From: an uncultured archaeon
GTDB lineage: Archaea; Iainarchaeota; Iainarchaeia; Iainarchaeales; GCA-2688035
Length of the DNA stretch: 64,000 bases
Direction of reading: 5' to 3'
Assembly: GCA_964354805.1 (NCBI GenBank)
Contig: CAYHBD010000009.1
Location: 91,538 to 155,537, forward strand
The notes under the pieces were generated by a model. That model worked only from the letters and a program-made list of their open reading frames with translations, had not been told where the DNA came from and searched no databases. A program made the position numbers and the translations under genes. This document shows, piece by piece, positions 5,956 through 48,025 of this stretch (positions within the stretch are counted from its first letter, which is position 1; every line of letters starts with the position of its first letter).

Positions 5956-6579
5956 ATGGCAATAGTAAAACAACTGTTGGGCGGAAACGAAAACGCAATA
6001 ATTGAAAAAGCCGCAAAAATCCTCAAAGATGGCGGCGTAATAATTTTCCCTACGGAAACAAGCTATGGCCTGGCTGTTGATGCAACAAACGAGACAGCAA
6101 TAACAAAAATGGTGAAGGCAAAGGAACAGCCAGAGGAAAAAAACATTTCAATAATCGTATCCGATTTGGAGCAGGCAAAAAAATTCGGCAAAATCACGCC
6201 TGAAGCAGAAACCCTTGCAAAGAAATTCATGCCAGGGCCCCTGACGCTCGTAGTGGAAAAACAGTACAATGTGTCGAATGCGCTTGCGGAGAAAACAATT
6301 GCTTTCAGAATCTCAAGCAACAGGATTGCAACAGAGCTGTGCAAAGCGCTCGGAAACCCGATAACAGCAACCAGCGCAAACCTGCACGGAAGGCCGAACA
6401 TCTATTCAGGAAAAGAGGCAATAAAGCAGTTTGGCGGCAGGGTTCACATGATTATTGACGCTGGCGAGCTGCCAAAAATCCCGCCAAGCACAATGTATGA
6501 CACAATCAACAAAAGAGTCCTGCGCTTCGGCCCAATAACAGAACAGGAAATAAAACAGGTGCTGGAGGAGCAGAAATGA
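5956..6579 (+). CDS. sua5: L-threonylcarbamoyladenylate synthase (Sua5/YrdC/TsaC family), single YrdC domain
   Basis: FPTETSYGL motif, ...TSAN...G, ~200 aa YrdC fold. Confidence 0.8.
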   Translation: MAIVKQLLGGNENAIIEKAAKILKDGGVIIFPTETSYGLAVDATNETAITKMVKAKEQPEEKNISIIVSDLEQAKKFGKITPEAETLAKKFMPGPLTLVVEKQYNVSNALAEKTIAFRISSNRIATELCKALGNPITATSANLHGRPNIYSGKEAIKQFGGRVHMIIDAGELPKIPPSTMYDTINKRVLRFGPITEQEIKQVLEEQK

Positions 6580-6694: not shown

Positions 6695-7696
6695 ATGATT
6701 GAACTCAGGTTTGGCGAAATTCTTGACCCGCTGCCTGAAAGGCTTTTGGGCAGGATTACAAAGCAAACCCTGCAAGGCATAAACAGGTATCCGTCAAACT
6801 ATGGCAAGCTTGTTTCAAAGCTCGCCAAATTGCATAAAGTGGGGGAAAAAAACATTGTTCTAGCTAACGGCGTTGACGAAGCAATTGATTTGGTTGCAAG
6901 GGCATTTGGGCAAAAGATGGCGGTTTTCACGCCAACTTATTACGAATTTTGCGCTGCAGCGCAGCGCAACGGCCTGAAATGCAGTGGAATAAATTGTTTT
7001 GACGGAAAAAACTATTTCCCGAAATACGACAGCGTGCCAGGAGACTGCACGCTTTTGTTTTTGTGCAACCCCAACAATCCTTTTGGCACACTGCAAAAAA
7101 AAGAAGTCGTTGCATTGGCGCAAAAAACAAAAGCGATGGTTGCAGTGGATGAAACTTACATTGATTTTGCCGGTGAAACATTAATCAAAGAGGCTGCGAA
7201 TTGCAAAAACCTGCTTGTCTTCAGGAGTTTTTCAAAGGGCTTTTGCCTCCCTGGCTTGAGAATAGGTTACGTTGTGGGGAACGAAAAGGCAATAAAGAAA
7301 ATAATGCAGAGAAAGCTTTGCTTCAATGTTTCTTCAGTTGCAGTTGAAGCCGCGTTGCTGGCGCTGGATGAAAAAAACCATTTCAAGAAGCTCGTGAAAT
7401 CGGTAATGAAAAGAAAAGCGGCTTTTGAGAAATTTCTGAAAGCAACGGGCTTTGACGTCAAGCAAAGCAGCATACCAAAAATTTTCATGCGCTTCCGCGC
7501 ACCGAAACAGGCAATTGCATTCCAGAGGGTTCTGGAAAAAAACGGTTTTGCAATAACAGTTGGCAACGGGATTTCAACATGCGGCCTTGACAAGAGCTTT
7601 GCACAGTTTTCGTGCGGAACTGAAAAGCAAATGAGGCAACTCAAGGAAATAATAAAAAATTCGGTGAACCCTGATGGATTGGAAAAGCTTGGCTGA
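6695..7696 (+). CDS. PLP-dependent aminotransferase class I/II (HisC/CobD-like)
   Basis: FSKGFCLPGLRIGY lysine motif, NPNNPFG, and the size and architecture of histidinol-phosphate / threonine-phosphate decarboxylase-like enzymes. Confidence 0.65.
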   Translation: MIELRFGEILDPLPERLLGRITKQTLQGINRYPSNYGKLVSKLAKLHKVGEKNIVLANGVDEAIDLVARAFGQKMAVFTPTYYEFCAAAQRNGLKCSGINCFDGKNYFPKYDSVPGDCTLLFLCNPNNPFGTLQKKEVVALAQKTKAMVAVDETYIDFAGETLIKEAANCKNLLVFRSFSKGFCLPGLRIGYVVGNEKAIKKIMQRKLCFNVSSVAVEAALLALDEKNHFKKLVKSVMKRKAAFEKFLKATGFDVKQSSIPKIFMRFRAPKQAIAFQRVLEKNGFAITVGNGISTCGLDKSFAQFSCGTEKQMRQLKEIIKNSVNPDGLEKLG

Positions 7697-8786
7697 AACA
7701 AAAGCAGGAATCCTCTGTTGCGGGCTCAAAGAAAGCAAAGCCGCTGAAGAAATCTATGCATTGCAGCACCCGACATTGCATAAAAGAACAGGAAATGCCG
7801 GGTTGCAGCTTGCTTTGCCACAAGGCTTTATTGTAAACGGAATCTACGGCGAAGCTTTTTGCAAAAAATCGCCTTATTTGGCAGAGAAACAAGGAAAACA
7901 ATTTTTTGTTTCAAGGAACGGCTCCCTGGTTTGCGCCTGCACCCCGATTCCCGCCCCAAAATGGTATCACAAAACAACAACAGACGGCAAGCCAATGTCA
8001 AGCATAATGCTGCAGGAGGGCAAAGACACTCTGATTTCGAGCGTTTGGAACAATTGCTGTTATTTTCAGAACGGAACGCAATGCAAATTCTGCATATTGG
8101 GTTATCAAAAAGAAATGCAGTGGAAAAACGAAAAACAGGTTCTTGAAACACTGCTCGCAGCGCTGGAAGAAAACCCAGCATACCAGCTTCACCTGACAGC
8201 AGGCAACAGCGCCAGCCCGGACCACGGCTTGGCAAACTACGAAAAATACGTCAAAACAATCAGGAAAGAAACCAATCTGCCGGTTACATTGGAAATAAGC
8301 CCGCCTGAAGATTTAAAACAGCTCGAAAGCATAATCGCAGCAGGAGCAAATGGCTTTTCAATAAACATTGAAATATGGGATGAAAAAAAACGCAGGGAAA
8401 TCTGCCCTGGGAAATCAAAAATAAAACGCGAAAAATATTTCCAGGCATGGCAAAAAGCAGTTGATTTGCTCGGAAAATTCAAGACAAGCTCAGTGCTAAT
8501 AGTCGGCTTGGACAGCAAGGAAAATATTGCAGAAGGCATCAGGGCAATGGCCTGCATCGGAATAAAACCAGTCTTAATCCCGTTCAGGCCGTTCGCAAAG
8601 TCTGCACTGCATTATTTGCAGCCACCGAAAGCGCGAGAACTGATGAAATTGTCGGAAATTGCAGGAAAAGAATTAAAAAAAGCGGGCGCAAAGGAAAAAG
8701 AACTAATCGGCTGCGAACACTGCGGAGCATGCAGCCTTGAAAAAGATTTTCTGGTTAACGCAAGAAAGGAAAATGCGGAAAAGTGA
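7674..8786 (+). CDS. Putative radical-SAM/TIM-barrel Fe-S protein with a non-canonical Cys triad (CX7CX2C) and a C-terminal CEHCGAC cluster
   Basis: CYFQNGTQCKFCILG near the N-terminus, alternating beta/alpha pattern, and a second Cys cluster at the C-terminus. No canonical CX3CX2C. Confidence 0.35.
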   Translation: MDWKSLAETKAGILCCGLKESKAAEEIYALQHPTLHKRTGNAGLQLALPQGFIVNGIYGEAFCKKSPYLAEKQGKQFFVSRNGSLVCACTPIPAPKWYHKTTTDGKPMSSIMLQEGKDTLISSVWNNCCYFQNGTQCKFCILGYQKEMQWKNEKQVLETLLAALEENPAYQLHLTAGNSASPDHGLANYEKYVKTIRKETNLPVTLEISPPEDLKQLESIIAAGANGFSINIEIWDEKKRREICPGKSKIKREKYFQAWQKAVDLLGKFKTSSVLIVGLDSKENIAEGIRAMACIGIKPVLIPFRPFAKSALHYLQPPKARELMKLSEIAGKELKKAGAKEKELIGCEHCGACSLEKDFLVNARKENAEK

Positions 8787-8802
8787 TGAAAAATGAACTG
8801 CC

Positions 8803-9441
8803 CTAAAGCTTAAGAGCGCTTCTAAGGTGGCTTAAGTCCAATACAAAAACCATTAAAGTATTCTTTTTTGTGTCAATGACATATTCCCAACTCTCAGTGA
8901 TATCGATTCCGTCTTCTTCAGAAGCACGTTTTGTCATGACATCAACATAATCCAAAGCACTTTTTATTTCTTGGCTTCTTTCAAGACCCCTTTTTTTAAA
9001 AAAAACGAAGACGTTGTTTTTATTCATTGTTTGCAAGTCCCCAAACTTTCGCAAGTCCGTAAGTGCAAGATGTTTTTCTCCGTTAATTTCAACAACCCTT
9101 ATTGTTGGTGGCACAGGATACCCTTTTGCCCTAAGATTTTGAAACATCTTAAATTCTCTTTCAGCAATGCTGCTTTGAGTTTCACCGCAAAACTCTTTCA
9201 GGTTATATCTTTTTACAACAAGCCTTATTTTTTTATTTCCTTTACAGACTATAAAATTATAAGCCCTGCCATGCCGCCCCGCGGCGGGCATTTTCTCGGT
9301 TACTTGCAAAAGCCCAGGGCCTGTTATACCAAACAGCGCATTAACTTTCTTAATCTTTTGAACCCGGTGAACTGTATCAGGATGGAAATCCTTTTTTCCA
9401 CCCCTTAAAAAGTTTTTTTGGTGCCCGGATTTGTGCTTCAT
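8803..9441 (-). CDS. Hypothetical protein in the AT-rich island, with weak RIO/Kdo-kinase-like N-lobe similarity
   Basis: AEREFKMFQNLRAKGYPVPP resembles the RIO/Bud32/Kdo kinase helix motif, but there is no clear HGDL catalytic loop. Local GC is clearly below the window average. Confidence 0.3.
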   Translation of the reverse strand: MKHKSGHQKNFLRGGKKDFHPDTVHRVQKIKKVNALFGITGPGLLQVTEKMPAAGRHGRAYNFIVCKGNKKIRLVVKRYNLKEFCGETQSSIAEREFKMFQNLRAKGYPVPPTIRVVEINGEKHLALTDLRKFGDLQTMNKNNVFVFFKKRGLERSQEIKSALDYVDVMTKRASEEDGIDITESWEYVIDTKKNTLMVFVLDLSHLRSALKL

Positions 9442-9542
9442 AATAATTAATGTTATTAGAAAGTAATTAAATTGTTTAATGGTAGAAGAATATTACAACA
9501 TTGACTTAAGAAGGCAAATAAAGTTGTTTGTGGTTAACGCTT

Positions 9543-9878
9543 TTAGGCGAGCGCTTTTACGGCTTGTTCCTCAAACCCAATTTTTTCCATTGATTTTTTC
9601 ATCAACTCGTTGTCCAATTCAATCAATTGTTTTACCACAGGGTTTTTGTTATTGAGCTTGAACATGCTTGCCTTGCCGACTTTTCTGGTGTAAGTTACTG
9701 TATTGGCTTTTTCCAACTTGCCCCAGAAGGTTTCCAATGTATTCCAGGAAACATTGGCATTCCTGCAAATGTCTTTCTTTGAGTAGTCAAATATGTCGTT
9801 CTCTATCAAGAAATCCAAGACCCTAATTATCGGGGAATCGCCAAAGAACAGCACAAACAAAGACTTGTCTTCAGCCAT
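9543..9878 (-). CDS. Small winged-helix DNA-binding protein (putative transcriptional regulator), divergent from the next gene
   Basis: 111 aa with a predicted wHTH (RVLDFLIENDIFDYSKKDICRNANVSWNTLETF). It lies in the AT-rich island, with an AT-rich divergent promoter region at 9879..10077. Confidence 0.45.
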   Translation of the reverse strand: MAEDKSLFVLFFGDSPIIRVLDFLIENDIFDYSKKDICRNANVSWNTLETFWGKLEKANTVTYTRKVGKASMFKLNNKNPVVKQLIELDNELMKKSMEKIGFEEQAVKALA

Positions 9879-10077
9879 ACAAAGAAATCCCTTTTATAAT
9901 TGATATAACTACTTGTAGGTAAATAATTTAAATAGTAGAAGGCCAAGTTTGAGTGCAAAAGATATTTCGTTTTTTGACGGTAAGAAAGAAGCATTTTAAA
10001 AGTATCGTATGGGGGTATTTAAATAAGGAAAAAACGAAAAGAAAATATTAAATAGGAGAACTTACTTATAAAGGTAG

Positions 10078-10335
10078 ATGCACATGGCAGGAACTTCTTT
10101 TTTGACCTTCAAGAAAAATGACGTTGAACAAATACTGACAACGTTAGATATCGTCACAGAAAAAAAGGGCGTGAAAGAATTTATTTTAGATGAGAAAAAA
10201 GAGATTGCAAAGTGCTATGTCTGCGATGAAAAGCTTACTCCAGAAAACATAGGGAACATAATCAAAGGCTCAAAAATTCTCCTTTGTGACAATCCTTCCT
10301 GCTTTAGCGGATACCTTGTTGAGAAAAAACTTTAG
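10078..10335 (+). CDS. Hypothetical small protein with a CxxC...C...C putative zinc-binding motif
   Basis: CYVCDEK...LLCDNPSC. AT-rich island. Confidence 0.3.
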   Translation: MHMAGTSFLTFKKNDVEQILTTLDIVTEKKGVKEFILDEKKEIAKCYVCDEKLTPENIGNIIKGSKILLCDNPSCFSGYLVEKKL

Positions 10336-10341
10336 ACACTT

Positions 10342-11142
10342 ATGGCTGAATTTATTAACAAGGTAAAAAAACGATTTGGGGGAAAGGTAAAAATAGGCAT
10401 AAATCCCTCATTCGAAACTGAAAAGGCTGAAATCCATATTGGGCACAACTACAACATTACGATAAATCAGTTCGGAGACAAAACAGACCCAAAAAAAATC
10501 TTGGAAAGCTTTGAAAAAGAGCAAATACTTACAAGAGACGACCTACTTCTCCCAGACATAGAGCAAACAGAAACGGTTATCACAAGAAGTCAACTCCTGC
10601 TGTTCTACCGCCCCCATCTAAGCAAAAAAGATTTGGCTGCCCTCAATGACAGTCTTAGCATAATAGCTTTGGAAGATAAAGAACTGAATGAGGAAGCAAA
10701 AAAAAGACACGAGCAATTGTATAAAGCGTATAAAAAACGGGGTCTCGTGATATATAACTTTGCAAGAAGTGGGCTCTTTGAAACCGAAATAAAAGTAACC
10801 CTTGAAAGGATAATCAAGCAACATCTCGGAAAAGAAGTTAAAACAATAGATGAATTCAATAACTATTTTGAAGGACTAATTCAAAGACACCCCGCAAACA
10901 TTTATGTTAGCAAATACTGGGCTGAACATAGAGTATTGGATGAGATCCAAGAAAGATTGGAATTGATATTACGAGATAAAACAAGCTTAATCAAAATATA
11001 TTGCAGGGAACCGCAATTGGGGATGGTCAAAACTGTGTGTAACCAAGTAGAAAGTTTATTTACTATAACTCATGATGAGTATAGGTTTGGAAAAAATAAA
11101 GCATACACATTTTATCTGGCCCTTAAAGAAGATGCTGATTAA
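10342..11142 (+). CDS. Hypothetical protein (266 aa), no recognisable domain
   Basis: Long clean ORF in the AT-rich island. Its stop is immediately followed (ATG at 11143) by kae1. Confidence 0.35.
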   Translation: MAEFINKVKKRFGGKVKIGINPSFETEKAEIHIGHNYNITINQFGDKTDPKKILESFEKEQILTRDDLLLPDIEQTETVITRSQLLLFYRPHLSKKDLAALNDSLSIIALEDKELNEEAKKRHEQLYKAYKKRGLVIYNFARSGLFETEIKVTLERIIKQHLGKEVKTIDEFNNYFEGLIQRHPANIYVSKYWAEHRVLDEIQERLELILRDKTSLIKIYCREPQLGMVKTVCNQVESLFTITHDEYRFGKNKAYTFYLALKEDAD

Positions 11143-12168
11143 ATGCAGAGCAAAGACGGCATTACTTGCCTTGGCATTGAGAGCACCGCACTCTAGAGGG
11201 TTCTAGGCGGATATACTTTCGGTGCCGGAATAGTTAGCGACAGCTGCGGCAAATGCAATATTCTCGCAAACGAAAAGCACAGCGTTTCAACAGCACAGGG
11301 CGGCCTGATTCCCCGCGAATTGGCAGCGCACCATTTCAAGCACGCGAAGCAGGTGATAGAGGCAGCGCTGCAAAAAGCCAACCTGAAAATTGCAGATGTT
11401 GATTTGATTGCATTCAGCCAGGGGCCTGGCATTGGGCAGGCATTGAGGGTTGGGGCTGTTGCAGCAAGAACGCTTGCCCTCGCGCACAACAAGCCGTTGC
11501 TTGGCGTGAACCACTGCGTTGCACACGTTGAAATAGGAAAGGCACTTACTGGGGCAAAAAACCCGATTGTAGTTTATGTAAGCGGTGCAAACACGCAGAT
11601 AATCGGCTATGAGGAAGGAAAGTATCGTGTTTATGGTGAAACACTTGACATTGGAGTTGGAAATCTGCTGGATGCGTTTGGCAGGGCGCTTGGCTTGGGT
11701 TTCCCGGCAGGGCCTGTTCTGGACAAAATGTATTTTGAAAAAAAGAAATATGTTCCACTGCCTTACACTGTAAAGGGAATGGATTTGGCTTTCTCAGGGC
11801 TGCAGACAGCGGCAGAGCAAAAAATTGCAAATGAGAGAAAAGAGGACTTGGCTTACAGCCTGCTGCACAATGCCTTTGCAATGGTTACAGAGGTAAGCGA
11901 GAGGGCCCTTGCACACACTGAGAAGAACGAATTGCTGCTCACTGGCGGAGTTGCTGCAAGCAAGGCGCTGAGGGAAATGCTGCAGAAAATGTGCGATGCG
12001 CGTTCATGCAAGTTTTTTGTCCCGCCTTTTGATGTGTGCGTGGACCAGGGAACAATGATTGCATGGCTTGGATTGATAATGCACAAAGCAGGCAACAGGA
12101 TGAAAGTGGAAAACAGCGTTGTCAACCCAAAGCAGAGGGCTGACCAGATTGAAGTGAACTGGGTTTAA
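11143..12168 (+). CDS. kae1: tRNA N6-threonylcarbamoyladenosine synthase Kae1/TsaD. The N-terminal region carries a 21-nt insert with an in-frame TAG (11194..11196). The six-frame track starts at a TTG at 11320, which would delete the essential N-terminal motif.
   Basis: The frame is continuous from ATG 11143. CLGIESTA..[L*RVLGG]..YTFGAGIV flanks the insert, and HCVAHVEIG, the metal-binding His pair and a C-terminal GGVAAN-like region are all Kae1-typical. The gene is not fused to bud32. Confidence 0.8.
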
Positions 12169-22201: not shown

Positions 22202-25200
22202 CTATGGTATTGGTCCAACACTGCTAAAATCAATTTGTTGGAATCCAATTCCTCCCTGCGAAATGGGTTTTAATGCAGGAGAATTAGCAAGCAAAGTGAA
22301 CTTGTCATTACTATAATCTTCAAACAAGGGGTCTGCAACTATTGGGTCTTGATCAAATCCTTTTTGTTTCCACTCCTCAAGATTCCAATTGGGGTTTGTA
22401 CGATAGTTGGGATTATAATAAAGATTAAAATTTGAATAATCAATTGAATGAATCTCTTGTTTCGTTATAAGTTTTCCATCATTTTCGTAATAGACAATAT
22501 TTCTTGTAAACCTGTTGCCAGAGGGCATTCTATTAGTAAATGGATCCACTATATCCTCCAAATCCGGAGAACCCCCAGCATAATTTAACTGACTCAGGCC
22601 ACCTTCAGCGAAAATATTGTTCTCAACAACATTATCAAAATTTCGAACAAGAAGCAAAGCGCCCCACGAGGCCCTATAAACTACATTATTTTTAACTTGG
22701 ATATCCTTGCTGCCCATGTCCAAATAAATTCCGACGATTCCCCAATCAGTAAGGTGTTTATTGGTCTTAACTATATCGTGACAAATATTATTTCTGACTA
22801 TTGTCCCTGGTTGTTTGCCCACAAGATAGATGGCTGCACCATCATTTAACTCTTGCATTACATGATGAACCTCGTTATACTCAATTATATTATTGCTGAC
22901 TAAAGTATCGTATGCATACCATCTCCATCCAACAGAAATTCCAGTGTAAGTAGTATCGTAAACCAGATTATGCGAGATTTTATTGCCCCCGCTCATTAAA
23001 ACCAATATCCCAGCACCCTCTTTATAGACCGCATTTGTGTTGTGAATCCTATTATTCGAAATCGTGTTATTCTTTGTTAAGTTTTCATTAACATCAATAC
23101 CAACCTTAATGCCCCCAGCGCCTGTGTCAAATATATCATTTCCGATTATTTGAAGATTTTCAGAATAACTGTATAAAGCATAAGCGCCGGTATTTTTAAT
23201 GACATTATTCTCAAACTTGCAATTTCTACAAAACTCAAAACTTACAGCAGCAGGAACTGGAATATTAAACCCTGTTTGTATACCATAATAACCATTCGCT
23301 GGAAGCCACCAATCAGAATCAGCAAAAGTAAGCCCTTTGAAATTTATGTTTTCGGCAAACGTAAGAACTAATCTAGTATCCACATCAAATCGCAGAGCCT
23401 TTCCTATCTTACCCTCAACAAATTGCTGTTTACCAACTAATGTAATATTCTTGAAATTTCCAGATACGTCATTAAGACTGCCTTCAAAAGGAACGTGAAG
23501 GATTAAACCATTTGTTATATCCTTCGCATTAAACAACTCTTCTACCTCACTCTGGCTTAAGCTCCTGTTGAATATCCTCAATTCATCCATAGCCCCTACA
23601 AAACCATCACAATAAGGGGGTTTTCCAATTTCAGGAGAGTCAAGTTTCATATTGGGATAAAAATCAATCGGCACTTCCCCTTCATATTCGCCATCAATAT
23701 AACAAATAAATTTTTTACTTTCCTTATTCTCCCTGTCAAAAACACCAGTAATCAAATGCCATTGAGCATCACTGACAATAGTATTCCCACAAATAGTTTC
23801 TGTATATTTGCTGCCATCTCCAATTAAAAATTTTATTTTCCCTCTACTAAGCCCAAACCGATAGCCATTCCCAGCACCTGCATTACCCACTGTATACATC
23901 CTGATTGATGTAGAAGCAGTGTTAACCCAATGAGAAATAGTAAAAGAACCTGCCAAATTTAAACCATTTTCTTCACCGTTAACCTTAACAAGTTGATTTA
24001 AAATAGGGGCAACAATTTCAGAACTATCTACTTTTTTTCCAGGCAAAGGCCAGTAATACAATTTTCCAGCATGCTTATCAAGATACCATTCACCAGGGCT
24101 ATCGAGCCCTTCAAAAACATTTTCAACATAATACCTTCCTGTACTAGGGTTATAATCATAGTCATACCCCCTGTCTATTGGCAGGCTGCCAACAAAATAA
24201 ACCTTTTGCCCTTCCACCCTGGCTATCTTAAATCTTGACTCCTTCCATCTCCTATAAGAAATAACCTCAACATCATTAAGATTTGTCCATTTAGCACTAA
24301 TATCACTACCACTAAAATTAAATGCAGTAAGATTTGTGCCAGCATCTACACCATTAATATAGTAAAAGCCCTCGTCCGGCTCCCTTGCCCTCACAGCCCT
24401 TTTGCCATCCACAAAAAGAGAATTAAAATCACCATACTGGCCCAAAAAAGAAGAAACATCAGCAACATAAATTCCACCTTTATAGGGTTTCCAATCTAAC
24501 TTTAATTTTTTCCCTCCAGAAATAACCACTTCTTCTCCAGGGTAAGCCTGGTAAGTAATTGGCTTATCAGAAGCCCCAGAGTCTTCAAAGGTAAGGTTAA
24601 ATGTCTTATCCAATCGATAAACCCCTCCCCGAACATAAACATTTACCGGGGCATTAAACCTATTTTGCTGCTTTAAACCCCTAACAGCATCCCTTGCTTT
24701 CTCCAAAGTCTTAAAAGGACTATCAATTGTCCCCAAACCGTTATCATTCCCAGACGCAGAAACATAATAACAAATTGTCCCAGGAACCGGGCAAGCTGGT
24801 GGTGAACAGTCGTTGTCCACAAAGTAGTTACAATCTGCTGGACAGCAACCGTCGCCATTTTGGCATCTGGTGATTGGCGTGTGGAGGCAAGCATTGTTTG
24901 TATCGCAAATGTCAACAGTGCACGCGTTTTGGTCATTGCACTGTGAGTCATTGTAGCATTCAATTGGGTTTATGCATTCCCCCAGGCAGCATTGGGTTGT
25001 GCCTGTTGCAAGAACAACAGACCTCGAGCAAACCTTGTTGCTTGGGCAGAGTGTTCCCCCCATTTCATCACATGTTTTGAGCACGCACCCGCCGCTGACA
25101 CATTTCTTATTCGGGTCACAGGTCACGTTTTTGCAGGGGTCAGGAGTGCCCTCCTCACAGTCACTTGGGCAGCATCTATCGCTATCAAATGCTGATATAA

Positions 25201-25771
25201 AATTACTCGGGCATGTTTCATTACTCGAGCATATCCTGCCACTTTGTGCAGCACATGTCAGCGTAGTGCAATCGCTGTCATTTAAGTGGCTGCAGTTACT
25301 TGGGCAACATCCATCACCTGAGTTGCAGTTGATTATCTGACTATGCGAGCACTTTTTTGGGGCACCGCTGCAAACATCACTTGTGCAACTGGCCCCATCA
25401 TCGCAGTCTGAATTTTTCTGGCACTCATCCAGCGTTACTGGCTTTTTGTAAACGCATAAAACTTCTGTTCCTTTTTCATCAAGCCATGCTTCAAGCTGGT
25501 TTTCATTCTTTTTAATCAAAAAATACAAATGGGGTTTCTCTTCGAACTGTCGACCGCATTTCTCCATAATTGTGTTTATTTGTGATTTTACCTGGCTTTT
25601 TTCCCAAAGACTGCTTGTAATTGCTGCGTCAGGATTTTCTGCAAGAAATTCCTTCACTCTTGAATCAGCTTTAACTACATTAATTGGATCCTGCGGGCCA
25701 ACGCACCCGCCCAAAGCAACTGCTACAAAAAACAAAACAAAAAGCAATATCACGCCTATTCTTTCCATCAA
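22202..25771 (-). CDS. Large secreted/surface protein (1189 aa): signal peptide, Cys-rich CCP-type repeats, LamG/concanavalin-like domain, and right-handed parallel beta-helix repeats
   Basis: N-terminal hydrophobic signal (VILLFVLFFVAVALGGCVG). Three repeats of the type CxxGDGCCPxxCxxxxDxDC, and a LamG-like block (ISHWVN...DELRIFNRSLSQSEVEELF). Repeated NN(R/V)I..N beta-helix turns (NNRIHNTN, NNIIEYNEVHH, NNVVYRA). Confidence 0.6.
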   Translation of the reverse strand: MMERIGVILLFVLFFVAVALGGCVGPQDPINVVKADSRVKEFLAENPDAAITSSLWEKSQVKSQINTIMEKCGRQFEEKPHLYFLIKKNENQLEAWLDEKGTEVLCVYKKPVTLDECQKNSDCDDGASCTSDVCSGAPKKCSHSQIINCNSGDGCCPSNCSHLNDSDCTTLTCAAQSGRICSSNETCPSNFISAFDSDRCCPSDCEEGTPDPCKNVTCDPNKKCVSGGCVLKTCDEMGGTLCPSNKVCSRSVVLATGTTQCCLGECINPIECYNDSQCNDQNACTVDICDTNNACLHTPITRCQNGDGCCPADCNYFVDNDCSPPACPVPGTICYYVSASGNDNGLGTIDSPFKTLEKARDAVRGLKQQNRFNAPVNVYVRGGVYRLDKTFNLTFEDSGASDKPITYQAYPGEEVVISGGKKLKLDWKPYKGGIYVADVSSFLGQYGDFNSLFVDGKRAVRAREPDEGFYYINGVDAGTNLTAFNFSGSDISAKWTNLNDVEVISYRRWKESRFKIARVEGQKVYFVGSLPIDRGYDYDYNPSTGRYYVENVFEGLDSPGEWYLDKHAGKLYYWPLPGKKVDSSEIVAPILNQLVKVNGEENGLNLAGSFTISHWVNTASTSIRMYTVGNAGAGNGYRFGLSRGKIKFLIGDGSKYTETICGNTIVSDAQWHLITGVFDRENKESKKFICYIDGEYEGEVPIDFYPNMKLDSPEIGKPPYCDGFVGAMDELRIFNRSLSQSEVEELFNAKDITNGLILHVPFEGSLNDVSGNFKNITLVGKQQFVEGKIGKALRFDVDTRLVLTFAENINFKGLTFADSDWWLPANGYYGIQTGFNIPVPAAVSFEFCRNCKFENNVIKNTGAYALYSYSENLQIIGNDIFDTGAGGIKVGIDVNENLTKNNTISNNRIHNTNAVYKEGAGILVLMSGGNKISHNLVYDTTYTGISVGWRWYAYDTLVSNNIIEYNEVHHVMQELNDGAAIYLVGKQPGTIVRNNICHDIVKTNKHLTDWGIVGIYLDMGSKDIQVKNNVVYRASWGALLLVRNFDNVVENNIFAEGGLSQLNYAGGSPDLEDIVDPFTNRMPSGNRFTRNIVYYENDGKLITKQEIHSIDYSNFNLYYNPNYRTNPNWNLEEWKQKGFDQDPIVADPLFEDYSNDKFTLLANSPALKPISQGGIGFQQIDFSSVGPIP

Positions 25772-32527: not shown

Positions 32528-33130
32528 ATGCGGCTGGTAAGGCAGGGAGCAGAGGCAAAGCTGTTCAGAACAGAATTTGAGGGAAAGCCCGCGCTCTTGA
32601 AGCAGCGTTTGCCAAAAGATTACAGGTGCAATGAGTTGGATGAAAGGCTGAGGAAGGAAAGAACAACAGTGGAGGGAAATCTGCTGAGGGCCGCAAGGCA
32701 GCTTGGCATCAACACACCGCTCGTTTTCTCAGTTGAAAAGGGGAAGAGCGAAATATTAATGCAATTCATTTCCGGGCCCAGGGTAAAAGACGTTTTAAGC
32801 AAAAAGAACCTGAAAATCTGTAGTGACATTGGCAAAGCAATTGCACTAATGCACGAAAGCAATCTGATTCACGGCGACCTGACCACTTCAAATATTCTGC
32901 TTGACGGAAAAAAGTTGTTCTTTATTGATTTTGGATTGGGCTACCGCAGCAGCAAGCTGGAGGACAAGGCAGTTGATTTGCTTGTTTTCAAAAAAACATT
33001 TGAGGCAACCCACTGCAAGCTGATGCCAAAAGGCTGGGAGAAAATAATTGGGGGCTATCTGCAGGCAGGCGGCTCAGATGGCATTGTAAAACAGATGCAG
33101 AAAGTGGAGCAAAGAGTGAGGTACCATTAG
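32528..33130 (+). CDS. bud32: KEOPS complex kinase Bud32 (standalone)
   Basis: About 200 aa RIO-type kinase. LIHGDLTTSNILL catalytic loop and FIDFGLG DFG-like motif. Confidence 0.8.
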   Translation: MRLVRQGAEAKLFRTEFEGKPALLKQRLPKDYRCNELDERLRKERTTVEGNLLRAARQLGINTPLVFSVEKGKSEILMQFISGPRVKDVLSKKNLKICSDIGKAIALMHESNLIHGDLTTSNILLDGKKLFFIDFGLGYRSSKLEDKAVDLLVFKKTFEATHCKLMPKGWEKIIGGYLQAGGSDGIVKQMQKVEQRVRYH

Positions 33131-45964: not shown

Positions 45965-46003
45965 AAATTTTTATTCAAGAAAGACCTACTCTAATTGATT
46001 AAA
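45965..46003 (+). promoter_or_regulatory. Conserved family upstream element, copy D (runs into the TTG start)
   Basis: aaatttttattcaagaaagacctactctaattgattaaa. Confidence 0.5.
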
Positions 46004-48025
46004 TTGAAATCCTGCATTAAAATTCCTGCAATCGCATTCCTTGCAATGCTGTTGATCGGGGCAGCATCAGCCCAAAAAATGAGGCATAAAGAGAAAAAGT
46101 TAATACAAGCGAATTTAGTGCTAGCAATTGGTATAGTTTCTTTACTGATTTTTTTTAGTTTGGGAAGTATTAGAGAGCCAGTTAAAGAAGGTTTAACGAG
46201 CTTTGCCGTATCAAGTTTTGATGAAGTTGTTCCCAATTGTGGCAATAATCTTTGCGAGAGTGGAGAAATTGCTGAAAGTTGTCCTGATGATTGCGATATA
46301 TGTTCTGAAGAAAAATGTGATGTGTATGCCCCTATTCAGCATAAGAAATATTTTAAGGCTGAAAAGGAAGTTTATGGTTATGACCCGCCTTTCCAACCAG
46401 CTCGAGTAACCTTTGACGCTAATAATAGGCCATATATCAGAAAGAATGACTGTAACACTACAAATGACTTCGCGTTTCGATGTTTTACAAATCAGCTAAT
46501 TATTCAAACCCTTAACAGCAGTGGAGAGTGGGAGTATTGGGATTTATCTAATATAGTAAAAACATACAAAGACCAAATGTTTAGATCCAGCACTCAAACA
46601 GATGAAAGAGTAATTATTGATTCTGACGGAGATATGTATCTTGCAGTTGAATACAATCTTGAACCTTCTCTGCTACTTTTATATTCAAATGATGAGGGTA
46701 AAAACTGGCAGAGTTATCCTATCCAAGGGGTGTCTATGAAGTTTGAACCATGGCCAGGGCGAAATACTCCATCAATTTTAATCACAAATCGTGATAATAA
46801 GGAATTATATTTTATTATACCCCAAAAATTATCAAATGGCACCTTAGATCTCTCCCATAAAATAAAATTATCAGATAATGCCTGGGAACCACTAAATCCT
46901 GGAGGGTATATGAGTTATTCTTTTAGTTATGGTGATCTAACTTTTTTTGTTTGGGCAGAATCAATTAGTTCTACTCCTAATGAAAACGGAACTCCATCTT
47001 ACATTGCCGTGTATAATAGGACAAGCAGATTGTTAAGTCAACCATATCATATTGGAAATGGTGGAACTTATAATGGGGGGACAGGACTCACTGAGCCCCA
47101 TAATCAACCAACCTTATGTTTGGATTCCAAAGGGTATATTCATGTTATCCTAGGAGGCCATAATGAGCAATTTAAATATTACAAATCAAAATATCCTTTA
47201 AATATCACAAAGTGGGAAGCACCCGTCTATCTTGGGGATCCAAATATTGATAATGTACAGAATAAACTAACTTATCCTGCACTACTTTGCGGAAAGGATG
47301 ATACTTTACATCTTGCTATGCGTTCAATAATTCCTACTTATAGTTTCACTTTATCTTATACAAGAAAAAAAACAGGTCAGGGTTGGGAAAAAATTAAGCC
47401 GCTTGTTTTACCATTCAGAGCCTATTATGGACACTGGTATCATCAACTGAACATGGATAATAATGGCGTATTGTACTTAAATTATTGGTATCTTGCAAAT
47501 AATTTATTTGATGATGAGCTTGAGGCTTATCAACAAAAGTGGCCAGACGAAGACATTAATCTTAGCGGAGCATACAAACCAACAAACAACACATATTGGT
47601 GGAATCTCTATCCACTATACCACAGTCCAGCGATGCTTGTTTCCTACGATAACGGAGATTCTTGGAAGCTCGCTGTTACAAGTGATTTTATAAAAGGAAT
47701 GAACAAAGAAATCTGCGGAAACCAGCAATGCGAAGCAGGCGAAACCTTTGAAAGCTGCCCAACAGACTGCAAATGCGGCAATAGCGCCTGCGAAGTAGGC
47801 GAAACTTTCACAACATGCCCGGCAGACTGCAAATGCGGCAATGCAACATGCGACGCAGGCGAAACATTCGAAACCTGCCCACGAGACTGCCCTCAAGAAT
47901 GCGTTGACAACGAAAAACTGGTAGGCTACTATATCCCCCAGTGGAAAAGGGGGGAAATAACCATGCTGACACTAATGCAGAAAATGAGGCAATGGAAAGC
48001 TGGAACAGGATGCCAGCCAGCATAG
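45995..48025 (+). CDS. Secreted protein, family member D: an N-terminal Cys mini-module, a BNR/propeller-like core, three C-terminal Cys mini-modules and the conserved tail; apparent TTG start
   Basis: Signal MIKLKSCIKIPAIAFLAMLL. C-terminus CGNQQCEAGETFESCPTDCKCGNSACEVGETFTTCPADCKCGNATCDAGETFETCPRDCPQECVDNEKLVGYYIPQWKRGEITMLTLMQKMRQWKAGTGCQPA. Confidence 0.7.
   Translation: MIKLKSCIKIPAIAFLAMLLIGAASAQKMRHKEKKLIQANLVLAIGIVSLLIFFSLGSIREPVKEGLTSFAVSSFDEVVPNCGNNLCESGEIAESCPDDCDICSEEKCDVYAPIQHKKYFKAEKEVYGYDPPFQPARVTFDANNRPYIRKNDCNTTNDFAFRCFTNQLIIQTLNSSGEWEYWDLSNIVKTYKDQMFRSSTQTDERVIIDSDGDMYLAVEYNLEPSLLLLYSNDEGKNWQSYPIQGVSMKFEPWPGRNTPSILITNRDNKELYFIIPQKLSNGTLDLSHKIKLSDNAWEPLNPGGYMSYSFSYGDLTFFVWAESISSTPNENGTPSYIAVYNRTSRLLSQPYHIGNGGTYNGGTGLTEPHNQPTLCLDSKGYIHVILGGHNEQFKYYKSKYPLNITKWEAPVYLGDPNIDNVQNKLTYPALLCGKDDTLHLAMRSIIPTYSFTLSYTRKKTGQGWEKIKPLVLPFRAYYGHWYHQLNMDNNGVLYLNYWYLANNLFDDELEAYQQKWPDEDINLSGAYKPTNNTYWWNLYPLYHSPAMLVSYDNGDSWKLAVTSDFIKGMNKEICGNQQCEAGETFESCPTDCKCGNSACEVGETFTTCPADCKCGNATCDAGETFETCPRDCPQECVDNEKLVGYYIPQWKRGEITMLTLMQKMRQWKAGTGCQPA

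Follow-up and report, generated by a model that had tools for sequence, protein, structure and literature searches.

Why should an AT-rich stretch of four genes that match no known family lie directly against kae1, a gene of tRNA modification, and why does that kae1 seem to be broken just past the point at which the stretch ends? The question is raised by a 64,000-nt stretch of DNA from an uncultured archaeon of the Iainarchaeota, a DPANN lineage, with a small genome (the window, whose coordinates are used throughout), in which four open reading frames (ORFs), here called A to D, occupy the space between a radical SAM gene and kae1. The answer proposed here is that the region is, quite probably, a mosaic of laterally acquired cargo lying in an insertion or recombination hotspot that splits an ancestral sua5-kae1 gene pair. 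By their sequences and distribution, the four genes fall into three units with separate histories: B, A, and the pair C-D. The last of these is also found in at least eight unrelated archaeal contexts.

What occupies this place in the relatives? The nearest Kae1 loci are those of 'Candidatus Iainarchaeum' bins (74-82% identity), and the gene order in these Iainarchaeota is g5319-sua5-kae1-lon-like-permease. The products of sua5 and kae1 both act in tRNA t6A synthesis, and tblastn finds sua5 upstream of kae1 in at least 15 related loci. It directly adjoins kae1 in L003, L006, L007, L013 and L015. Other cargo lies at the junction in L004 (a homologue of B together with a different 85-aa gene), L005 (a 240-aa gene), L008 (a 248-aa gene), L009 and L014 (a gene of ~220 aa), L011 and L012 (a 157-aa gene, to which L011 adds a 417-aa LAGLIDADG-like ORF) and L036 (four small genes, one of them MazF-like). 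Because the relatives have either an empty site or unrelated cargo at this place, the sua5-kae1 junction is taken to be an insertion hotspot and the island to be accessory. In the window, the left anchor of the ancestral pair, a tsaC-type sua5 identified by tblastn (5956-6579, plus strand), is separated from kae1 by ~4.5 kb: an aminotransferase gene and a radical SAM gene, both of host-like GC content, and then A to D. The DNA that is absent from the relatives accordingly exceeds the island noted earlier and takes in 6695-8786 as well. These additional two genes, for the aminotransferase (6695-7696, plus strand; Pfam Aminotran_1_2, 1.3e-39) and for a variant radical SAM protein related to the MSMEG_0568 family (7674-8786, plus strand; Pfam Radical_SAM, 6.8e-10; NCBIfam NF045502, 6e-63), overlap by 23 nt, have a GC content at third codon positions (GC3) of 0.46-0.48, and have no tblastn match in any related locus examined, which suggests that they were inserted earlier or brought in by an internal rearrangement.

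The composition of the island itself is deviant. Its GC content (8790-11142) is 0.359, compared with a mean of 0.437 (standard deviation 0.023) over all 2353-nt windows, and is the lowest in the 64 kb; its tetranucleotide distance from the window average (z=3.2) ranks fifth among 247, with only overlapping windows at 22-25 kb ranking higher. A (0.36), C (0.41) and D (0.35) also have a low GC3 (neighboring genes: 0.43-0.52), while that of B, at 0.55, is host-like. None of the four proteins has a family above threshold in Pfam, NCBIfam, PHROGs or PADLOC. On the left, A faces the NF045502-matching radical SAM gene; on the right, the stop codon of D (11140-11142) is directly followed by the ATG of kae1 (11143), and an insert bearing a TAG codon begins 49 nt into kae1. 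A previous reading, made from the sequence alone, had remarked on a GC drop over ~2.3 kb, on four ORFs without a recognizable family, on the radical-SAM-like left neighbor and on the coincidence of the right border with the kae1 start, and had argued from them for horizontal acquisition. These observations stand, and the argument is strengthened by the relatives: the composition is not uniform, the four genes are not kept in synteny in all relatives, and the same site is elsewhere empty or otherwise filled. The junctions are not peculiar to one assembly, since independent Logan assemblies agree on them: 7177-9214 and 9923-11768 recur with 100% identity in those of runs ERR4334727 and ERR4334728, and gene A, with an identical translated product, is present on a third contig. 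(Two other compositional outliers of the window are a gene at 22202-25771, minus strand, for a 1189-aa protein with beta-helix, Laminin_G_3 and GH141_M domains and a GC3 of 0.34, in the region that exceeds the island in tetranucleotide deviation, and one at 45995-48025, plus strand, for a 676-aa BNR-repeat protein with a GC3 of 0.32; both are probably surface proteins.)

Did the four genes arrive together? The sequence-only reading took them for a single island or module, with A and B as a divergent pair. On both counts a different picture emerges. A (212 aa, an orphan protein; 8803-9441) and B (111 aa; 9543-9878) are both on the minus strand, and it is B and C that diverge, across an AT-rich intergenic region (9879-10083); C (10084-10335 for 83 aa, or from 10078 for 85 aa) and D (266 aa; 10342-11142) are on the plus strand. 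The closest island-bearing relative, L089 (JAIYIC010000057), has the order B-C-D'-kae1-lon; A is missing, and the left flank is a 2-hydroxyacid-dehydrogenase-like gene. L004 carries only B of the four. The genes shared with L089 also differ in age. Compared with L089, the window shows a synonymous divergence (dS) of 0.41 in B, 0.52 in kae1 and 0.43 in the lon-like gene, and of 0.09 in C and 0.105 in codons 1-116 of D. Third-position mismatches number 12 in the 199 codons of C-D against 92 in the 393 of B and kae1 (Fisher p=2.6e-8). The intergenic segment 9908-10007 is 100% identical to that of L089, and adjoining B is 85-90% identical; to judge by this step in identity, the block that was recently exchanged begins on the left at ~9908. 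The tract of low divergence runs from there through D, kae1 exon 1 and the intron described below to ~11290, where its boundary is noisy. These comparisons show that C-D is a recent arrival or exchange, shared between the lineages of the window and L089 long after the flanking core genes had diverged. B, which has homologues at this junction also in L004 (83% identity) and L089 (93%), a dS like that of kae1 and lon, and a ratio of nonsynonymous to synonymous divergence (dN/dS) of 0.09 against L089, is an older, vertically inherited resident of the junction that is under strong purifying selection. A is a separate addition, present at this locus only in this genome's version. D is also under purifying selection where it is intact (dN/dS 0.1); in L089 a 383-nt in-frame deletion has left a D' of 133 aa (1716-2117 of that contig) next to an intact C.

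What might B do? Over residues ~18-95 it has matches below threshold to HTH_Tnp_1_2 (0.0077), IscR (0.017), DUF7342 (0.16) and a PHROG transcriptional regulator (0.096), all of them helix-turn-helix-type families over the same residues; a PDB search yields no match. A winged-helix-like DNA-binding protein is a plausible reading of these matches. B is transcribed divergently from C-D, and 9879-10083, which carries TTTAAATA-type TATA-like boxes, is presumed to be the promoter region for B in one direction and for C-D and kae1 in the other. B would then probably regulate this divergent promoter. Because kae1 begins on the base following the stop codon of D, it is probably on the island promoter, and would be transcribed as part of a C-D-kae1 operon.

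The affiliation of A can be dealt with briefly. The one homologue family found for it (P0004, 195 aa, 46% identity) belongs to another archaeon (L085, 10001-10588; also L086 and L087), where its gene is flanked by pyrK and pyrB within a long operon for pyrimidine biosynthesis. The sequence-only reading had seen a RIO/Kdo-kinase-like fold in A, and every sequence-based test of that idea comes out negative: searches of Pfam and NCBIfam at E<=1 turn up no kinase family, a PDB profile search turns up nothing, a Bud32 profile hidden Markov model (HMM) built from two Kae1-Bud32 fusions does not match A even at E<=10, and hhalign gives a probability of 0.8%. The A/P0004 alignment has no invariant HxD or Asn and no DFG motif; only LDL(S/E)H and WEYVID are conserved. 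The canonical Bud32 of this genome, the kinase of KEOPS, is encoded at 32528-33130 (plus strand), ~20 kb from kae1 and neither fused nor adjacent to it; as a positive control, it readily matches RIO1, Kdo and Pkinase. A kinase assignment for A is rejected as unsupported by these searches.

The C-D pair is the part of the island with a life elsewhere. C is a Cys4 zinc-ribbon protein with four invariant cysteines (C46, C49, C70 and C75). A word-based search found just two homologues of D, each with a homologue of C ahead of it, and a profile search with C yielded ten clusters. Nine contexts could be read, and in all nine the gene that directly follows C belongs to the D family. The two genes are 6 nt apart in the window, and elsewhere their spacing ranges from a 14-nt overlap to a 15-nt gap. 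The earlier remark that a small zinc-ribbon protein is here laid out with a larger partner thus turns out to describe a conserved two-gene unit. Its contexts are the window itself; L089 and L090; L084; L083 (CAYOAS010000019), after nrdD; L091-93, beside type I restriction-modification genes, an integrase and Mrr, with a methylase and toxin-antitoxin genes in L091; L094, beside HMG-CoA synthase and thiolase (D-family HMM, 1.8e-45); L096-97, among integrase, methylase, HicAB, PemK and MazE genes; L098, where C, upstream of D, was overlooked by the gene caller; and L099, the single extra locus with C from a metagenome scan, where the pair lies beside MBF1. Two of the nine (L091 and L096) are defense or mobile islands. 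(In L083, the anaerobic ribonucleotide reductase gene nrdD at 475-2696, immediately upstream of C-D, is split into ORFs of 660 and 66 aa, being broken inside its CPxCG zinc-ribbon motif and ahead of the glycyl-radical segment. A second intron was considered for the 39-nt gap; the gap has a ribosome-binding site and an ATG, and what is seen looks more like two ORFs, a gene in pieces, than like an intron.)

What kind of protein is D? An exhaustive profile search assembles a family of 139 cluster representatives at E<=1e-3, nearly all of them 260-300 aa long, with conserved motifs LED (E111, D112), RGxxIYNxxRSxxFE, HPxNIYV, R205, IYxRG (R222) and Y247. D and 80 of its relatives have no Pfam match and no PDB sequence match, and even at E<=10 no PDB chain is retrieved with the family profile; no relatives turned up in viral-contig and metagenome scans. 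A first AlphaFold2 run on a three-sequence alignment was poor (pLDDT 54) and was replaced by one on 80 sequences, which gave a confident model (pLDDT 89.7, pTM 0.82; pLDDT above 90 in the C-terminal domain): an N-terminal helix and hairpin, a helical domain (66-181) and a beta-alpha-beta-alpha-beta-beta domain (186-261). Foldseek matches of this last domain in the PDB are nearly all to Alba, Rpp20/25, Pop6/7 and the C-terminal domain of IF3 (IF3-C), weakly so (E 0.01-0.1), with TM scores of 0.5-0.67 relative to the target for the top matches. In hhalign the family's IYxRG...I falls in register with KARGRAI of Alba at 4% probability, in a comparison with an Sso10b sequence entered by hand. The likeness to the Alba superfamily (Alba/Sso10b, Rpp20/Pop7, Rpp25/Pop6) and to IF3-C therefore concerns the predicted fold of the C-terminal 80 residues and one motif in register; D differs in having no sequence-level membership of the superfamily, in the fusion of this domain to a 180-residue N-terminal hairpin and helical part that bears LED and RGxxIYNxxRSxxFE, and in being always paired with a zinc-ribbon protein. 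No enzymatic domain was recognized in D by profile searches, in the AlphaFold2 model or by Foldseek. D is here taken for a probable nucleic-acid-binding protein. C and D may form a complex in which zinc-ribbon C partners D and nucleic acid is bound through the Alba-like domain; that the pair is such a nucleic-acid-binding complex is a tentative suggestion, with the balance somewhat against it. On the proposal made here, the cassette would persist as a self-contained mobile accessory module that serves addiction, defense or element maintenance rather than metabolism. (There are also repeated sub-threshold matches to Csm2, the small subunit of type III CRISPR systems, over residues 115-180: PADLOC gives 0.013 for D and 3.5e-5 for one of 80 family members, and Pfam gives 0.0063. 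The search of the PDB with the family profile lends no support to a Csm2/Cas11 reading of the helical domain.)

Is the kae1 gene that abuts D really damaged, as the sequence-only reading had it? After the codons for GIESTA its frame runs into CTC TAG. GIESTAHTFG stands at this point in 11 intron-less relatives, and two more differ solely at the Ser or the Gly. Removing 21 nt (11192-11212, TCTAGAGGGTTCTAGGCGGAT) joins exon 1 (11143-11191), delimited by alignment of the spliced Kae1 proteins, to exon 2 (11213-12168, all on the plus strand; TsaD/Kae1 domain, Pfam TsaD 2.7e-73), restores GCA CAT ACT, and with it AHTF, and yields a Kae1 of 334 aa, which fits the lengths of its relatives (313-335 aa). 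The RNA around the insert folds as a bulge-helix-bulge: a central 4-bp helix of CCGC (11186-11189) and GCGG (11207-11210), flanked on opposite strands by 3-nt bulges, AC|U (11190-11192) and AU|A (11211-11213); a 5-bp inner stem of CUAGA (11193-11197) and UCUAG (11202-11206); and an outer exon-exon helix of 11173-11185 with 11214-11226 in which 12 of 13 positions are paired. The minimum free energy is -25 kcal/mol (z=-4.0), and none of 200 shuffled sequences is as stable. In a canonical bulge-helix-bulge each strand is cut after the second bulge nucleotide; cuts predicted at those positions join GCA C|AU ACU, exactly as the reading frame needs. Inserts are found at the same site in L089 (20 nt, which shifts the frame unless removed) and L011 (18 nt); taken together, the three pair in 95% of cells (36-45% in slid controls), with one compensatory change of a G-C to an A-U pair and one C.A mismatch replaced by U-A. 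Interrupted genes account for 3 of the 84 loci with a kae1 5' end, these being the window, L089 and L011. The frame shift in L089 also disposes of the notion that TAG is read as a sense codon in an in-frame 7-residue Kae1 insertion. (A window-wide scan for bulge-helix-bulge motifs recovers the kae1 site and is too permissive, with 86 matches against ~35 in shuffled sequence.) The kae1 gene is most likely intact, then, and its insert a canonical bulge-helix-bulge mini-intron; the mRNA would be repaired by the tRNA splicing endonuclease and a ligase. What had passed for damage has the exact geometry of an intron, on account of which gene callers begin kae1 at an internal codon.

In the literature searched, archaeal mRNA introns spliced by the tRNA endonuclease are described only for cbf5 (Crenarchaeota; PMC2738675) and HVO_1309 (Haloferax; PMC10485636), and no paper connects Kae1 with such an intron. 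The kae1 insert resembles those of cbf5 (PMC2738675) and HVO_1309 (PMC10485636) in being short, in interrupting a protein-coding gene, in having the motif for the tRNA splicing endonuclease and in restoring the frame on removal; in those cases, too, annotators miss the intron and call a truncated gene. It differs in its gene, in its DPANN/Iainarchaeota lineage, in its very small size (18-21 nt), and in that its splicing is predicted. Its motif is canonical and strict, while that of cbf5 is described as more relaxed (PMC10485636).

How does the proposal as a whole fare? Several observations weigh against it. A search of the island borders found no integrase, transposase, tRNA gene or flanking direct repeats; such repeats as occur there are short and at chance level, none of A to D resembles a recombinase in Pfam, NCBIfam or PHROGs, ARAGORN finds no tRNA gene over the whole 64 kb, and an Rfam scan of 8500-11600 returned nothing credible. 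The dS values of C and D rest on 199 codons in all. The deletion in D' implies that D is dispensable in L089. Seven of the nine C-D contexts are housekeeping neighborhoods (nrdD, HMG-CoA synthase, a Hel308-like helicase, MBF1 or kae1), which makes the link to defense islands weak. No family or fold search assigns a function to D, C or A, and the Alba-like matches of D are faint, with no match to Pfam Alba among them. Splicing of the kae1 insert is predicted, not observed. A comparison with a familiar phenomenon cuts both ways: flexible genomic islets at hotspots between conserved core genes are a general concept of prokaryotic genome dynamics. The sua5-kae1 region is like them in its fixed core flanks, its varying cargo, the empty sites of some relatives, its deviant composition, and in cargo that is younger than the flanks (this applies to C-D only, and not to B); it is unlike them in the lack of integrase, tRNA gene or repeats at its borders, in lying inside a functional pair of tRNA t6A genes, and in that its right-hand cargo abuts the kae1 start codon and must consequently supply the kae1 promoter.

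Could the four genes simply be native, fast-evolving and lineage-specific, and AT-rich through weak expression or relaxed selection? One might cite the host-like GC3 of B and its dS, equal to that of the flanks, the borders that lack mobility genes and att-like repeats, and the surface proteins encoded by other low-GC genes of the window, which show that low GC alone does not prove foreign origin. For C-D this explanation is contradicted by the pair's presence in eight other unrelated contexts and by a dS against L089 that is four to five times below that of flanking core genes; L089 lacks A, L003 and other close relatives lack the entire set, and purifying selection on intact D does not fit relaxed selection. 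It could hold for B only, and for the island at large it is very improbable. That the island genes are accessory subunits of KEOPS, with A as a Bud32-like kinase and C-D replacing Pcc1 or Cgi121, must be put lower still, as close to negligible: the genes adjoin kae1 and are probably co-transcribed with it, and a kinase-like pattern had been seen in A, but the genome has its canonical Bud32, A is unmatched by Bud32 or RIO profiles, homologues of C-D and of A do not lie beside kae1 outside this lineage, and neither Cgi121 nor Pcc1, structures of which are among the PDB entries, appears in the 50 best Foldseek PDB matches to D. A more serious contender, though an unlikely one, is that C-D makes up an anti-virus defense or toxin-antitoxin system, perhaps regulated by B, in which D is the effector or toxin and C the sensor or antidote; the sequence-only reading had also thought of a defense module. 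Like two-gene cassettes of that kind, C-D joins a small to a large gene in apparent translational coupling, tightly enough to hold in all nine contexts, is patchy in distribution and mobile, with recent horizontal exchange, and is at times found in defense or mobile islands: the two contexts among integrase, type I and II methylase, Mrr, HicAB, PemK and MazE genes are of this sort. In L089 the large gene is inactivated by deletion and the small one intact, the usual order of decay of toxin-antitoxin pairs. The pair is unlike such cassettes in matching no catalogued family (PADLOC, Pfam, NCBIfam and PHROGs give nothing but the isolated sub-threshold Csm2) and in the lack of an effector-type domain: no nuclease, NTPase, protease, pore or other effector domain is seen in the confident model of D. 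The predominance of housekeeping neighborhoods and the absence of relatives from the viral contigs scanned also count against it.

There is a further explanation, which concerns the right half of the island together with the 5' end of kae1. An N-terminal Kae1 extension is found only in the three intron-bearing alleles (7 residues, MQSKDGIT, in the window, or MESKKEGIV). Over its first 31 columns the Kae1 of L011 is 71-74% identical to those of the window and L089 and 45% identical to those of its clade-mates L012 and L014; over the remainder the figures are 66% and 89%. The 417-aa ORF of L011 (8615-9930 of JAGVNX010000040, Iainarchaeum DeMMO3_25) runs in frame into exon 1 and stops inside the intron; it has two LAGLIDADG-like motifs, a marginal match to LAGLIDADG_3 (23.0 bits, cut-off 22.5) and no PDB sequence match. 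This mosaicism suggests that the 5' end of kae1 and its intron move horizontally with the gene directly upstream. Might the right half of the island, exon 1 and the intron then be a block of the homing type? An upstream endonuclease (the LAGLIDADG-like ORF in L011; possibly D with C, as a new endonuclease family, in the window) would cut intron-less kae1 at GIESTA/HTFG, the mini-intron would interrupt the target and protect its carrier, and gene, exon 1 and intron would spread by gene conversion. The rarity of interrupted kae1 5' ends fits, as does the fact that each of the three has a gene abutting or fused to its start (D in the window and L089, the LAGLIDADG_3-matching ORF in L011); the extension common to them and absent elsewhere, the mosaic Kae1 of L011, which has the signature of a co-conversion tract, and the high-identity tract that spans D, exon 1 and intron point the same way. 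LAGLIDADG endonucleases occur in archaeal rRNA introns, and in the collaborative homing of cyanophage S-PM2 a free-standing endonuclease, F-CphI, reportedly acts with the psbA intron. The resemblance to collaborative homing lies in a selfish gene beside a conserved target whose intron sits at one precise site and, in L011, in a mosaic exon tract and a LAGLIDADG-like ORF next to the intron; the differences are that the intron here is a protein-spliced bulge-helix-bulge and not self-splicing, and that the gene adjacent to it in the window, D, encodes no recognizable nuclease domain. Indeed, D has no recognizable nuclease fold or motif, the other C-D contexts have no comparable mini-intron in neighboring genes (nrdD of L083 apparently being two ORFs), the LAGLIDADG assignment in L011 is borderline, and the events are effectively only two. 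Homing of this kind must be regarded as a long shot.

If the region is such a mosaic of lateral cargo, there is nothing unusual about the islet as such, which is accessory DNA at a site that varies between genomes. What stands out is its content. C-D is a conserved and wholly unannotated archaeal pair that moves between genomes and offers a defined target within the "dark matter" of the DPANN archaea. As to homing, if the 5' end of kae1 did spread in that way, it would be the first instance of collaborative homing built on an archaeal mRNA intron spliced by the endonuclease, and the mosaic 5' end of L011 provides a testable handle on the mobility of bulge-helix-bulge introns. The apparent truncation of kae1, an essential tRNA-modification gene, is most likely a matter of annotation and not of damage. 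If that is true, kae1 would bring to three the archaeal protein genes with an endonuclease-spliced intron, and would be the first such case from a DPANN lineage; such introns would be more widespread, and gene callers would systematically break the genes that carry them.

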